Origin: Thermostichus sp. DRC_bins_24
Lineage (GTDB): Bacteria; Cyanobacteriota; Cyanobacteriia; Thermostichales; Thermostichaceae
DNA length: 64,000 nt
Assembly: GCA_039794845.1 (NCBI GenBank)
Contig: JAUQVK010000112.1
Location: forward strand, 1-64,000
Direction of reading: 5' to 3'
The stretch's first letter is position 1. Each line of letters opens with the position of its first letter. Both the position numbers and the translations under genes were made by a program. The notes beneath the pieces are model-generated. The model ran no database searches and was not told the origin of the DNA. It worked only from the letters and a program-made list of their open reading frames with translations. Below are positions 17,557 through 48,854 of this stretch, piece by piece.

Positions 17557-18516
17557 TTAAGACCACCGTGCCCACTTTATCCACCTCCTGGGAGCCACCC
17601 TACGAAGGGCGCAGGCATGGTAGCTGGGTTGACTGCCGTCCCTTGGACAAGCCACCAACCCAAAGCCCACACCATCCGCCACCATCTGGGTTGGCTTCAA
17701 CCCAAAATCAGACGGGATTCGGACAATAGGGGTCAGGGATCCCTGCCCATCGGTACCTGGCGAGCCCTGCAAATCAATATCGTGAATCGGCACAAAATCA
17801 CCATCATTTTGCTCCCGCAACACCCGACCATCCAGCACCACCGACACCCCCTGACTGAGAGTGGCCCTGAGAATACTGGGATCCCCTTGGGCAGGCGCCA
17901 AAAACCAGCAGTCTTGCCCCTGATGAAGGAGCTTAGTCTCTCTTTTATTCTTTTATAAAGAACTCCTTAATAAAGAAAAATCCTTCATCACCGGGAAACT
18001 ATCGAAATCCAACAACCGAGAGGTCTGCCCCGAGCTATCCACCTGTAACAACTCTGAACCACAACAGGTTTGCACCGCCGGATTTTGCCGAGCGAAAAAG
18101 ACCGGGAAAGACTCTCGGGTGAGAGCTACGCTATTTCCCACCTGCACCAAGTTGGACAGGTATTCGAATACTCCTCCAAAAGAGGAAGCAAACGGGAGAT
18201 TCTCCGCAAAAGTCGAGACTTGGCCCTGGGCATCAACCTGGCTCAAAACGCCGATATTCCGAGTTCTAATCGTTGCGTTGTAGCCCTGAGTGGCTTTCAA
18301 CAGCATCACCCCACCGTCAAAAGCCCCGATTCTCCTGAACCATTCTGAATAGCCTGGCCATGGATTTCTCTCCTCCTCCAACACCAGGCTCACCTGCCCT
18401 GAAGAGGTGATGCGAGTCAGTCGTGACCGGGTATCAATACATCTGCTCGAGGTTAATGAAAACTCCCGACAGTTATCCTCCAGAACCCAATAATCAGAGC
18501 CCGATTTCACCAAGTC
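17557..18516 (-). pseudogene. Disrupted gene of unknown function
   Basis: ORFs 17953-18549 and 17557-17901 share one frame and are split only by TAA at 17953-17955; 5' part replaced by ISL3. Confidence 0.65.
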
Positions 18517-19560
18517 GGCTCTCCTAGACTTATGGTGATCAGCGATCACTAAGTCCAGAAGGCTGTCAATAATCGAGCTCTGAAGTTGGTCATATTGGTA
18601 AACCCGTACCCTTGTCGCTTTATTACCTTGATCCGGTTGTTGATTCCCTCCATCATCCCATTAGTCACACGATTCACAAAATAGTGACAGATCCCCTGAA
18701 GATGATTCCGGACTGCCTTGACCCCATCGGTGTGAACCCTTTGAGCCTCTGCCAGCCATGCGACCAGTTGACTCTCTCCCTCCTTTACAGTAATTATGCT
18801 CTCAAAAATGCTCCGCAACCTCTCTTTCAGTTCATAGGCTTGCCTCAGTCGTTTGCTCCGTTTTAAATAGATCTCCAGTTTTGCCTTTTCTTCCTCAGTT
18901 AAGTCTTTATTATTCTTAAGTATGATTCTTTTTAATCCTTTCTCTGTAATCTGAGCCTGTCGTCTAATTCTGTCTAACTCCTGGATGGCTTTCTGCCACA
19001 TGGAATCTGTCATAGACGATACGGGCCTTCGGAAATACCCGCCTGACAACTTTGGTAAATCCAGCCCACATATCGATACTCACTTCTTCCATCCTCAGCC
19101 TCTCTTCCTCTGCCCATAAGCTTTCCAGCCTTGCAATAAACTCTTCTTCTTTGTGAACATCAATCACCTCTAGCAGACAATGATTCTCTAGGTCGCCGAT
19201 AACTGTCACGTATTGATTGCGCCCTTTTCGTAAACTGATCTCGTCGATACTGATTTTCTTGGCCCGAAACACTGGGGCTCTTTTGGGCTTGTTGCTGCTC
19301 AGACTGACGCTTGAATATCCCTTCCACTTGGTCTCGACTTAATCCTTCATTCTGACTAACTTGTTCAATCGTCGATTGTTTGACTTGTCGATAAATAGAG
19401 GTTTCATAACGCTGTGTATAGGAGCGTTCCCAGTCCACGAATGAGAGGACTTCAGTGGAGTAGTGCTGGCAGTGAGAGCAATAAAATTGGCGGCGAGGCA
19501 CTTGCAGATAGACTGAACGCCCAAACAGGGACAAGTCTCGCACAACGAACCATTCTACAG
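18517..19560 (-). mobile_element. ISL3-family IS remnant; transposase 5'-truncated with two frameshifts
   Basis: RDLSLFG...RRQFYCSHC, ISIDEISLRKG, SIDMW, DRFHV, TNGMMEGINNRIKVIKRQGYGF across three ORFs; GGCTCT terminus at 18517. Confidence 0.92.
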
Positions 19561-19580
19561 TAAATCTCACCTGTTGGTAT

Positions 19581-19817
19581 TTGGATACGTTTCATTCCTT
19601 TTATCGCCACTTTTTGCTGAAGCTGTTCCATGAGGGATTGGGCAAGCCCGATCGCAATCCTGAATTGAACAAACTGCTGGGCAAAATTCCCTATCTGAAT
19701 CTGAATGGCGGCTTGTTTGAAGTCCACCAGTTGAAGGAAAAATATGACACCACTCTGCACATTCCCGATGTGGTGTTTGAGCAAGTGGTGATGTTTATCA
19801 ATTCATACATCGGGTGA
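19581..19817 (+). pseudogene. Fragment of a type IIG/Eco57I-like restriction-modification enzyme
   Basis: FYRHFLLKLFHEGL...KIPYLN(LN)GGLF; CTGAAT is duplicated within the motif. Confidence 0.7.
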
Positions 19818-19850
19818 GCATTGGCGAAGCCTCTCTGCAAGAAAATCGCG

Positions 19851-19916
19851 GCACAACAACGCGCTGCACCCGACCGCCAAGAGGTTATCTGCCGCGGGTG
19901 AGCTAACCCGTTCCCC
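19851..19916 (+). other. Integron attC-like recombination site
   Basis: R'' GCACAAC, 5-nt spacer, L'' GCT(G)CACCCG pairing with L' CGGGTGAGC with one extrahelical base, 6-nt spacer, then GTT. Confidence 0.75.
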
Positions 19917-19949
19917 ATCAATGTCCTTTGCTTTCAGGGATCCCTTTCT

Positions 19950-21053
19950 TTAGCGCAGAAAACGAGCCAGTAGCACCATGCCGATGCCTCCGAACAGAAT
20001 GTTGAAACTCCAGGCCGCCGCCCAAGGGGGCAAAGCCCCGGCTTCTCCCAAACTGCGGGACACACTTAAAATCACGTAGTAGCCAAACACCAACAAAATG
20101 CCGAAAACCACGCCCCCATAGCGCCCCACCCGGCGGGCCGTACTGGATCCCAGGGGCAGCGAGATCAACACCGCAAAAAAGCTGGCCAAAGGCAAGGAAA
20201 AGCGCAAATGAAACTCGGTGCGCAGGGCTTGGGTGTTCAGGTTAGAGCGGGCCAAACGCGCAATTCGCTCCGCCAATTCCGGCAAGCGCAACTCACTCGG
20301 GGGTACGGGCAGCTGCATCAGGGTGGCCAGATCCTCCGAGACCTGCAAGGGCTTACGGTCAAAGACCTGCTCGGCAATGCTGGTGCCGGTGGGACCATAG
20401 ATGTGGGTCACCCCTTCACTGAGGCTCCACTCCAAACCATTCCACACCGCCTGAGCCGCCAAGGTCACTTCTGCCAACTGATAGTTGCCCCCCGGCAAGG
20501 GATTCACCCGCAGCAGGGTTACATCTTGCATGGTGTTCAGGCGGGGATCCACCTGGCGAATGAAAAACCAGAGGTTGTCTTCGGTTTTGAAAAAGACGTC
20601 GTACTGAACCGGGGTGGTGGCTTGGGTGAGCAAAGCCTGCTGATCGATCTCGCGGATTTGCTGTTTGCTGGCGGGGAGCAGCACATTGCTAATGCCAAAG
20701 GCGCTGAGGCTCATGGTCAGACCCACCAACAACAGGGGCCGGAAAATGCGGGAAAAAGGGATCCCAGCCGCTCGCAGGGCGGTGATCTCGCTATTGCCAC
20801 TCAGTTTGCCCAGGGTGAGCATGGTGGCGAAAAAGGCAGCGATCGGCATCCCCAGCACCACCATCTCCGGCATGTCCAGGGCCAAGAGGCGCAATACCAT
20901 CAAAGGGGGGACGGATCCCTCCACCAGCCGCTCGGCTAGGGTAAACAGCCTGCCCACCAGCAGCAGTAGCGTTCCCCCCGCCACACCGGCCAGCACCGGG
21001 GTAAGCATCTGTCCAAACAGGTAGCGCTCCAACAGCCAGAACTTGGTCAGCAA
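19950..21053 (-). CDS. LptF/LptG family LPS export permease
   Basis: LERYL, LSGNSEITALRAAGI, RFSLPLASF, LPPWAAAW. Confidence 0.93.
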   Translation of the reverse strand: MLTKFWLLERYLFGQMLTPVLAGVAGGTLLLLVGRLFTLAERLVEGSVPPLMVLRLLALDMPEMVVLGMPIAAFFATMLTLGKLSGNSEITALRAAGIPFSRIFRPLLLVGLTMSLSAFGISNVLLPASKQQIREIDQQALLTQATTPVQYDVFFKTEDNLWFFIRQVDPRLNTMQDVTLLRVNPLPGGNYQLAEVTLAAQAVWNGLEWSLSEGVTHIYGPTGTSIAEQVFDRKPLQVSEDLATLMQLPVPPSELRLPELAERIARLARSNLNTQALRTEFHLRFSLPLASFFAVLISLPLGSSTARRVGRYGGVVFGILLVFGYYVILSVSRSLGEAGALPPWAAAWSFNILFGGIGMVLLARFLR

Positions 21054-24317: not shown

Positions 24318-26300
24318 TTGCAACCTGGTCGTGTCAGCGGGACGCCGTCCCGTCGCCCTTGGATTCCCACCTCTCACCGCCTGGTGTTGTTCAGCGGCAA
24401 GGGGGGGGTGGGCAAAACCACTCTCACCTGTGCCCTGGCCCGCCAACTGGCCCGGGAGGAGCCCCAACGGCATATTCTCTTGATTTCCACGGATCCCGCC
24501 CACTCCTTAGGGGATGTGCTGGATTTTCCGGTGACCGATGCGGCCCAACCTCTGCCGGATCGGCCCAACTTGCAGGTACGGGCCTTGCAGGCGGAGGTTT
24601 TGTTAACGGCCTTCAAACAAACCTACGGAGAGGCCCTAGAGCTGATTGCCGAGCGGGGCAGTTGGTTTGGCCGCGAAGATCTGCTGCCCGTCTGGGATTT
24701 AACTTGGCCGGGGGTGGATGAATTGATGGCGATTCTGGAGGTAAATCGGCTGCTGGCGGGGGGGGCAGTGGATACCATCATTCTGGATACGGCTCCCACC
24801 GGCCATACCCTGCGGCTGCTGGAGCTACCCGATTTTCTGGACAATTTGCTGGCGGTTTTTGCCACCTTTCAGGCCAAGCACCGCGAGATCGCCCAAGCCC
24901 TAACGGGCACCTACCGGACGGATGAAGCAGATGCCTTTTTGGCCCAACTGCAGGGGGAACTCCAGGGGGGTAAAGCCCGCTTGACGGACCCGGCCACCAC
25001 TTCCGCTTGGTTGGTGATGCTCCCCGAGCATCTGAGTGTGGAAGAAACCCGGCGCTTCTGTCAGCAGTTGCAGCATCGCCGTGTACCCATCGGCGGCATC
25101 CTCGTCAACCAGGTGCTGTGGGAAAGCCCAGAGCAGCCCTCACCTCTGTATCTGGCCCGCCAACAGGAACAAAGCCGCATGCTCAAGGCTCTGACGGCAG
25201 GGCTGCCCGATTACCCGATTTGGGTCTGTCCCTACCGGTTGCAAGAGCCGATTGGGTCGTCGGCTCTGGATGGCTTGGTGGAGCAGCTGCGCCCTCTGTC
25301 GGAGTTGCCGGCGATCAACCCTTTGGCCATCCCTGAAAACAGGATCCCTGCGGAAGGGACGGACACCCTGCGCCTACCGGATTTTTTGAACCAGGGGATG
25401 CGGCTGGTCTTAACGGGAGGCAAAGGGGGTGTGGGCAAAACGACGGTGGCCGGAGCACTGGCCTGGAACTTGGCCAAACGACATCCCGACAAGCAGCTGT
25501 TGCTGGTCTCGATCGATCCGGCCCATTCTTTGGGGGATCTGTTCGCGGTGCCGTTGGGTCAGGATCCCGTGCCTTTACTGCCCAACCTGATGGGCCAGGA
25601 GATCGACGCAGCGGTGGTGTTGGAGCAGTTCCGGCAAGACTACCTGGAGGATATCGTCGCCATCTTGGCCGGAGAATCCACCGCTGGGGTTGAAGTGCAG
25701 TACGATCCCCAAGCTTGGCGACAACTGCTGCAAATGCCCCCACCCGGTTTGGATGAAGTGATGGCGCTGCTGACGGTACTGGAACAAAGCGCGGCAGGTC
25801 AGTTCGATTTGGTGGTGCTGGATACAGCCCCCACAGGGCACATGTTGCGGTTTTTGCAGATGCCCCAAGCTCTGGAGGGATGGGTGAGCTTGGCCCTGAA
25901 GCTGTGGCTGAAATATCGAGATGTGGTGGGCAGGCCGGAATTGGCTCAGCGGCTGCGGGGGTTGTTGGCCCAGGTGCGGCAACTGCGGCAACAACTGCAG
26001 GATCCGCAGTTCGTCACCTTTATTCCCGTCTTCAATCCTGAGCAGGCGGTACTGGCGGAAACCGAGCGTCTCCTGGCGGAATTGGATGAGCTGGGGATCC
26101 CACACCCCTATGCCGTCCTCAATCGAGTTTGGTTGGACACCTCCGATCCCTTCGGACAAACGGTGAGCCGGCGCCATCAGGCCATTTTGGCCCAACTGCC
26201 CGAGCGACTCCCCCAACAACGGATTTTGCGGATCCCGTTCCTGCATCCCCCCAGTTTGGAGAGAATGGGAGCCTATTTGTTCTCCCCTCACCAACCCTAG
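24318..26300 (+). CDS. ArsA/Get3 family ATPase, two fused domains
   Basis: Two GKGGVGKTT, two DPAHSLGD and two DTAPTGH motifs. Confidence 0.93.
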   Translation: MQPGRVSGTPSRRPWIPTSHRLVLFSGKGGVGKTTLTCALARQLAREEPQRHILLISTDPAHSLGDVLDFPVTDAAQPLPDRPNLQVRALQAEVLLTAFKQTYGEALELIAERGSWFGREDLLPVWDLTWPGVDELMAILEVNRLLAGGAVDTIILDTAPTGHTLRLLELPDFLDNLLAVFATFQAKHREIAQALTGTYRTDEADAFLAQLQGELQGGKARLTDPATTSAWLVMLPEHLSVEETRRFCQQLQHRRVPIGGILVNQVLWESPEQPSPLYLARQQEQSRMLKALTAGLPDYPIWVCPYRLQEPIGSSALDGLVEQLRPLSELPAINPLAIPENRIPAEGTDTLRLPDFLNQGMRLVLTGGKGGVGKTTVAGALAWNLAKRHPDKQLLLVSIDPAHSLGDLFAVPLGQDPVPLLPNLMGQEIDAAVVLEQFRQDYLEDIVAILAGESTAGVEVQYDPQAWRQLLQMPPPGLDEVMALLTVLEQSAAGQFDLVVLDTAPTGHMLRFLQMPQALEGWVSLALKLWLKYRDVVGRPELAQRLRGLLAQVRQLRQQLQDPQFVTFIPVFNPEQAVLAETERLLAELDELGIPHPYAVLNRVWLDTSDPFGQTVSRRHQAILAQLPERLPQQRILRIPFLHPPSLERMGAYLFSPHQP

Positions 26301-29250: not shown

Positions 29251-29319
29251 GCGGAGACGCATGTTTCCGTTCACTCCTCACACCATCTTCCGCTCGGCGT
29301 AAAGTCGGGCGGTTTTCTT
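29251..29319 (+). ncRNA. yfr1: Yfr1 small RNA
   Basis: Conserved ACTCCTCACAC (29273-29283) between a 5' hairpin and a terminator hairpin; TATGAT -10 element at 29238-29243. Confidence 0.92.
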
Positions 29320-48781: not shown

Positions 48782-48854
48782 AGCTGATGGTCAGATTCGA
48801 ACTGACGACCGCTCGATTACAAGTCGAGTGCTCTACCAACTGAGCTACACCAGC
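48782..48854 (-). tRNA. trnT: tRNA-Thr(UGU), CCA not encoded
   Basis: GCTGGTG/CATCAGC acceptor stem, TAGCTCAGTTGGTAGAGC D arm, CTTGTAA anticodon loop, GTTCGAA T loop. Confidence 0.98.

Follow-up and report, generated by a model that had tools for sequence, protein, structure and literature searches.

The sequence at 19851..19916 of the window (the whole 64,000-nucleotide stretch analysed here, from Thermostichus sp. DRC_bins_24) is, judged by homology, a genuine integron attC site by descent. Alignment to intact relatives shows it to be the shortened end of a cyanobacterial gene cassette whose last gene is DprA-like. The cassette's own coding sequence is gone, and the site is a SALIN, a single attC lacking an integrase, which is an already described class. 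The history that explains it best as a whole, at roughly even odds in our judgement, is that a cassette was inserted by an integron-integrase (IntI) at a genomic attG site and has since decayed. The host had been described from the DNA alone as a thermophilic cyanobacterium. That it is one, and Synechococcus-like, is borne out by hot-spring runs and by the frequency of GGGATCCC (1.31 per kb, compared with 1160–1345 per Mb in OS-A/B strains), an octamer given as a HIP1 derivative of thermophilic Synechococcus by Elhai (PMC4390886).

Table 1. Features of the attC site and its flanks, in window coordinates.
Feature	Position	Strand	Basis or remark
ISL3 transposon remnant, three ORF pieces, 5′ end cut at ~19546	18517..19546	-	PF01610, PF13542, PF14690
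Internal fragment of type IIG restriction-methyltransferase (RM) gene, both ends missing	19575..19790	+	PADLOC and G147 comparison
3′ untranslated tail of cassette ending in DprA/Smf-like gene	19789..19850	+	Alignment to L075, L097
attC site	19851..19916	top strand +, recombinogenic bottom strand -	66 bp; covariance model and alignment to intact copies
R″ inverse core GCACAAC	19851..19857	+	Direct read; identical in L075, L077, L083, L095-L099
L″ arm	19863..19877	+	Extrahelical bases 19866 and 19873; constrained fold and model alignment
Single imperfect direct-repeat copy	19881..19891	+	Marks deletion; alignments to L075, L097 and family sites
L′ arm	19891..19903	+	CGGGTGAGC = 19895-19903; model alignment and intact-copy alignment
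R′ core GTTCCCC	19910..19916	+	Crossover G19910|T19911; intact-copy similarity ends at GTT
DNA between crossover and HIP octamer	19911..19936		26 bp
GGGATCCC, HIP1-derivative octamer	19937..19944		From here on, relatives match (lptF/G locus)
lptF/lptG permease gene, native, convergent with cassette	19950..21053	-	PF03739 E 8e-95; matched in 11/11 relatives

The R cores, the L arms and the spacers of 5 nt (R″ to L″) and 6 nt (L′ to R′) all read as the preliminary description had them (Table 1), and the conserved triplets AAC (19855–19857) and GTT (19910–19912) are in place. The L″ arm reads GCT[G19866]CACCCG. Its G19866 is indeed a diagnostic extrahelical base, as had been claimed; a second one, A19873, had been missed. 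On the bottom strand the two are C and T, separated by a 6-bp stem, in line with attC sites in general, which have two or three such bases with a bottom-strand T as the last; according to Nivina et al. a 6-bp spacing between extrahelical bases is needed for IntI1 (PMC5027507). The same source gives G as the usual first extrahelical base; C is the rule in the family to which the window site belongs. Measured against the R-box consensus RYYYAAC/GTTRRRY (PMC5027507), R″ is one base off and R′ three bases off. The mismatches in R′ do not test the site itself, because those bases come from the recombination partner: in 11 of 14 neighbouring pairs in arrays, R′ and the R″ that follows it are reverse complements, as genuine insertion of cassettes leaves them. 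The R″ sequence GCACAAC is also present in the array of genome G004.

At 66 bp, the site is inside the 56–141 bp range given for mobile-integron attC sites, and it is ~20 bp shorter in its terminal loop than seven measured intact copies of 84–87 bp (L096 was left out of the measurement, its site being cut by a contig end). Intact family members carry an imperfect direct repeat twice in this loop; the window site keeps one copy and is without 20 nt. A substitution at 19893 also breaks one stem pair that the intact copies keep.

A generic scan gathered 20 attC sites adjoining intI (from G002, G003, G004, G008 and L079), and a covariance model was trained on 15 of them, with the window site excluded. 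Left out of training were four sites of 126–127 bp and one that had been retrieved by a window-derived pattern. The training alignment shows the expected structure in 87.8% of cells and two-sided (compensatory) changes at 11 of 17 pairs, and its paired share was reached by none of 500 shuffles (slid controls, 27–49%). A covariance check of the kind proposed in the preliminary description returned 49 bits for the window site on this home-built model (E 3.7e-11, roughly calibrated), a test that is not fully independent since the site and the training set have common ancestry, the training site G003a having first come to notice through its 83% similarity to the window site. The next of the four matches in the window scores 14.2 bits, so that there is one strong match in 64 kb and the description of the site as solitary holds. 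Intact family copies reach 66–82 bits on the same model.

Simpler measures are less telling. A strict attC pattern matches once in the window and twice in the genome and is only moderately rare, with at least one match in 9 of 300 dinucleotide-shuffled windows (3%). In an earlier genome scan that tolerated one mismatch, the window site was the sole perfect match among 34. The folding energy by itself does not stand out (z about -0.2) and is uninformative. When the GTDB collection was searched with a pattern that omits the R boxes, 28 genome loci were recovered, 26 of them titled as cyanobacteria; AAC stands at the expected place in 23 of these loci, GTT in 25, and both in 20, and intI lies inside the fetched flank of two. 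Members of the family of the window site also occur inside intI-linked arrays.

The probability of the recombinogenic bottom-strand fold at 37°C is 0.052 (calculated with a constraint of three R-box pairs, compared with four in PMC5371416), as against 0.094–0.132 for five intact copies and 0.016–0.63 for six intI-linked sites. Loot et al. call probabilities above 0.1 very high and 1e-5 very low (PMC5371416). Both the model score and the folding probability of the window site are thus below those of the intact copies but not lost, and the site is predicted to be probably still capable of folding and acting as a substrate, given a working integrase.

The start of this attC is common to eight loci (L075, L077, L083 and L095-L099), and the similarity extends upstream of the site. 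Window positions 19789–19891 are identical to L075 at 90 of 103 nt, and the identity to L097 is 92% over 100 nt. A DprA/Smf-like gene lies directly upstream of attC at six of the eight loci (tblastn), with PF02481 detected on the upstream gene of both loci tested (L075 and L083). L095 and L099 are near-identical, the flank of L077 is too short, and in L098 the upstream DNA is different. The 62 bp preceding the window site are the untranslated tail of the cassette, because they align to these intact DprA-like cassette ends. A second CGGGTGAGC exists at 19811–19819 and had been suggested to be a relic arm. This did not survive comparison: it aligns, with two differences, to TGGGTAAGC in the ordinary 3′ untranslated stretch of intact copies, and the genome has 64 copies of the 9-mer. 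With queries from L075, neither the DprA-like gene nor the RM C-terminus was found in the window's own genome. At L095 (870-5741) and L099, the DprA-like cassette end is found beside the tnsB-tnsC-tniQ genes of a type V-K CAST; integron cassette DNA is possibly carried there as CAST cargo.

Upstream of the tail is a piece of a type IIG RM gene, which matches the PADLOC profile REase_MTase_IIG (E 8.2e-25) over profile positions 233–302 of 1100 and is 72% identical to a 1114-aa protein in genome G147. The C-terminus of this RM family is also encoded upstream of the DprA-like gene in L075, L083, L095 and L099. It is probable that the ancestral cassette comprised the RM gene, small genes such as XisH/XisI, the DprA-like gene and attC, and that a large deletion has since taken place. 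The RM piece and the tail may instead stem from different elements, because the 19 kb fetched from G147, which has the closest full RM gene, contain neither a DprA-like gene nor an attC, and four other RM loci are also without a DprA-like gene. A plasmid search gave matches to the RM gene only and none to attC. The cargo had been described as of a defence type, which is right as to its origin, but it is a non-functional scrap: no intact coding sequence is tied to the site, only the RM fragment and the untranslated tail, and there is no working defence system here.

The left junction of the cassette has been lost, and with it the diagnostic TTGTGC start; no cassette start GTTGTGC was found on the + strand within 15–22 kb. 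A GCACAAC at 19541, at the ISL3 junction, was set aside, as it is mostly ISL3 coding sequence and points in the wrong direction. Other ISL3 copies run on past the junction at 19546, and ISL3 is a resident family (93–95% identity to a copy on contig C5). No contig bridging ISL3 and the RM piece at 19546 was seen among the matches listed. Further left, window positions 17640–18370 hold broken scraps that match a 260-aa gene of G002 at 71–78% DNA identity; they have no Pfam match, and the breaks lie close to GGGATCCC sites.

On the right, the sequence that relatives share at lptF/G does not begin at the crossover. Matches in G001, G008 and G009 begin at 19936, and a contig of run X13 diverges at the same position. 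X13 and X3 belong to a set of 12 runs with small word shares, which as a set was given no evidential weight. The 26–28 nt to the right of the crossover were found in none of the 11 other genomes of the genus at up to three mismatches, and no empty site was found there. The 3′ neighbours of lptF/G differ among the relatives read, in which argB lies elsewhere. The junction between attC and lptF/G is not an assembly error, because it is spanned by an X1 contig (19589–20600, one difference) and an X2 contig (19707–19964, none), both from one study and the former possibly the source of the window itself. In relatives (L006-L016, L151), the 3′ end of lptF/G is a hotspot for accessory DNA: G001 and G002 have CRISPR-like repeat arrays there, G008 and G009 one repeat each, and G005 an ISL3 and a further attC.

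Elsewhere in the window, Rfam gave no match at the site and only a Yfr1 small RNA (29251–29314, +) and a tRNA (48782–48854, -). A 660-aa ORF at 24318–26300 (+) has repeated GKGGVGKTT motifs, from which we take it to consist of two ArsA/GET3-like ATPase halves.

As the preliminary description had it, there is no intI in the window: none is found among the ORFs of 12–28 kb, and the intI matches in the genome are all on other contigs. The search for intI and further attC sites that it had proposed gave an intI disrupted by a stop codon next to chlH, and four further attC matches spread over the genome. The intI match to TIGR02249 (C45:4741-5478, 367.8 bits, cut-off 265) adjoins chlH; a TAG precedes its catalytic end, and its 5′ part is cut off by the contig end. 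A second intI 3′ fragment opens contig C40, and the 5′ part of intI was not found in the assembly by tblastn. The last 148 bp of intI with its tail are duplicated between G000:C45:4738-4885 and C40:7-154, with one difference. The C40 copy starts at the contig end and carries a sense codon in place of the TAG of C45. The model gave five matches at E ≤1 in the window's own genome, all of them single: the window site, a site on C83 (52.5 bits) and three weak ones, of which that on C35 resembles a clear attC in G005.

The arrangement of intI beside chlH also occurs in G003 and G005. Eight of the 12 genomes of the genus have an intI match, four of them over the TIGR02249 cut-off, and attC matches were found in at least eight of 12, with at least 24 in G004 (150 candidates were scored per genome, and training sites match by construction). 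Cassette traffic into this lineage had been proposed; it was not traffic into an integron-free lineage, as intI and arrays are resident in the genus. G004 has a complete integron with at least 14 attC sites (L034:1558-16549 and L125; G004:C1, ~1,917,000-1,946,500), whose IntI of 421 aa is 42% identical to the chlH-linked type. A complete prokaryotic Argonaute is encoded among its cassettes (915 bits on PADLOC pAgo), as are a NurA-like/HerA/methyltransferase block, a DNA methylase and toxin-antitoxin pairs. The chlH-side integron of G003 (L033:8414-13027; G003:C12) has a frameshifted intI and two attC sites, with an addiction module and a Dcm/Vsr restriction-type cassette.

The C83 site (G000:C83:9214-9560; L127) is a second solitary attC, at the end of a decayed PIN-type toxin-antitoxin cassette. 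It sits between two copper-resistance-like genes (labelled by sequence appearance) that are direct neighbours in G001, G002 and G009. GTT has been lost from its R′, and on either side of the site lies a copy of a non-coding repeat, ~95–140 bp long between its conserved motifs and with hairpin-like ends, of which the window's own genome has 114 copies (on contig C112 at 1967, 10280, 13454 and 52083). No transposase was found between these motifs. Three attC pieces (on C46, C83 and C15) lie 18–205 bp from a copy, as if the repeat had captured or cut cassette DNA. A link of the repeat to the window site was rejected, the nearest copy being 6.4 kb away.

Insertion by an integrase at a genomic G|TT (attG) site has, in our view, about an even chance of being the route of arrival. 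The lineage's own IntI would have placed the cassette downstream of lptF/G by recombining a folded bottom-strand attC with a chromosomal G|TT. The cassette ended in the DprA-like gene and would probably have begun with the type IIG RM gene. Decay would then have involved the landing of ISL3 on the left side of the cassette and a multi-kilobase deletion that fused the interior of the RM gene with the tail of the cassette; the end state of both is visible in the window, and their order is our reconstruction. A 20-nt deletion between the two direct repeats, perhaps by slippage, would have shortened the attC loop.

The sequence of R′ speaks for this route. A C as fifth base, which the window site has, is found in none of 20 array sites and none of 27 family sites with GTT, and therefore GTTCC is not a usual cassette start; the DNA after G|TT does not resemble one. 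L095 and L099, which are also solitary, have C at this position. The GTT fits the attG consensus GWT at positions -1 to 2, as would that of any attC, and is thus non-discriminating. Positions 6–9 (CATC) match three of four bases of the second attG motif, CRGM, a match expected by chance in ~16% of cases by our own estimate and to a motif defined for IntI1 (motifs from bioRxiv 2022.09.11.507474). Against insertion at attG stand the failure to find an empty site in the 11 relatives, the loss of the left junction, and the fact that the similarity to relatives starts at GGGATCCC, 26 bp away, and not at the crossover. Secondary-site integration, as first proposed, is accordingly plausible but unproven, and a rearrangement is nearly as likely.

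In such a rearrangement the same attC would have moved without an integrase, as a piece of a dismantled array (cassette tail, attC and the next 26 bp) that was relocated by an IS or by recombination at the abundant GGGATCCC and joined to the 3′ end of lptF/G; we hold this to be a serious competitor, at somewhat less than even odds. The junction with native DNA at GGGATCCC points this way, as does the duplicated 3′ end of intI (C45/C40), which diverges 2 nt after a GGGATCCC. In G005, an attC lies ~2.1 kb past lptF/G and is followed by ~75 bp that also follow attC at two other loci, a shared sequence that fades just after GGATCC. Further in favour are the ISL3 remnant next to the window site, the position of ISL3 beside attC in G004 and G011, the absence of the intI 5′ end and its array from the assembly, and the report by Cury et al. 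that 38% of CALINs have a neighbouring IS (PMC4889954). However, GTTCC is unlike any of the 47 cassette starts tallied, and since GGGATCCC occurs every ~760 bp, little can be read into its being close by. None of the other four attC matches in the genome has a GGGATCCC within 280 bp downstream.

It is improbable that the whole mosaic of ISL3, RM piece and attC was imported ready-made from another hot-spring cyanobacterium, by transformation or a mobile element, with the integrase acting in the donor only. The RM fragment is unmatched in all 22 other genomes of the family and matched in 43 of 400 other genomes of the phylum, related RM sequence occurs in hot-spring runs X2 and X3, the same cassette end stands beside the type V-K CAST in L095/L099, and 17640–18370 is a scrap of its own, akin to a gene of G002. 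Set against this, ISL3 is resident, as its similarity to the C5 copy attests, and no carrier element flanks the site. The reading that a chance palindrome or an lptF/G terminator merely mimics attC, to which the unremarkable folding energy, the matches in shuffled windows and a terminator-like hairpin at 19850–19870 on the lptF/G strand (one found, 0.8 expected by chance) might be taken to speak, is very improbable, and as an origin the palindrome is refuted by homology, given that unrelated cyanobacteria have intact cassette ends 87–92% identical in DNA over 100 nt, the model score and the family members in intI-linked arrays.

The genus is known for shuffled gene order. Extending insertion at attG from this site to the genus, we propose, as a tentative and rather unlikely generalisation, that the genus keeps a chlH-side integron, with a second integrase type in one species, and that mainly defence cassettes are sown singly by integrase-driven attG insertion. 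On this view the window site would be an attG product formed in nature in a thermophile and still able to recombine, and dispersed attC sites, together with GGGATCCC junctions, would help to drive the shuffling of gene order.

The site itself matters little, given how common single attC sites are and that models of cyanobacterial attC already exist. What is gained is a small advance at the level of the genus, with integrons, arrays and scattered attC sites in eight of 12 genomes of a thermophilic genus; no report of integrons in this genus was found in the open-licence literature, and a Synechococcus IntI is named in a phylogeny legend (PMC3108266). Proof of insertion at attG at this site would supply an example from nature of a route known until now chiefly from assays in the laboratory. 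The intact hot-spring IntI of G005 would permit testing of hairpin-dependent recombination at high temperature, and the Argonaute as an integron cassette in G004 may merit separate study.

Among known systems, a complete integron does not apply, as it would have intI and attI beside the cassette and the intI matches lie on other contigs, and neither does a CALIN, which needs at least two clustered attC sites where there is one here, the supposed relic arm having been rejected. The RM piece compares with the type IIG RM system of PADLOC (PDLC03628) in that the fragment and the full G147 protein both score, but it covers only ~70 of the 1100 profile positions and is not functional. The paper that describes SALINs counts 3400 of them in 2469 of 21,105 genomes, by a detection method that, as described there, needs a single attC only (bioRxiv 2022.09.11.507474). 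The window site resembles them in being a lone attC, away from any integrase or further att site (one strong match in 64 kb, intI matches only on C45 and C40; attI is not recognisable by sequence), and in having GWT at the crossover. It differs in that the isolated cassettes of that paper consist of a CDS and attC, while no intact CDS is left here; its origin at attG is unproven, and the integrase would be a cyanobacterial IntI and not IntI1. Cury et al. (PMC4889954) name cyanobacteria as one of the groups with integrons and report 431 single attC sites; the window site is like their isolated attC sites in lying away from intI, with intI elsewhere in the genome, and next to an IS. Compared with the taxon-specific cyanobacterial attC model of Ghaly et al. 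2021 (PMC8352920, PMC9176274), the family described here is cyanobacterial by title at 26 of 28 loci, and the window copy is set apart by being 20 bp shorter than its intact relatives.
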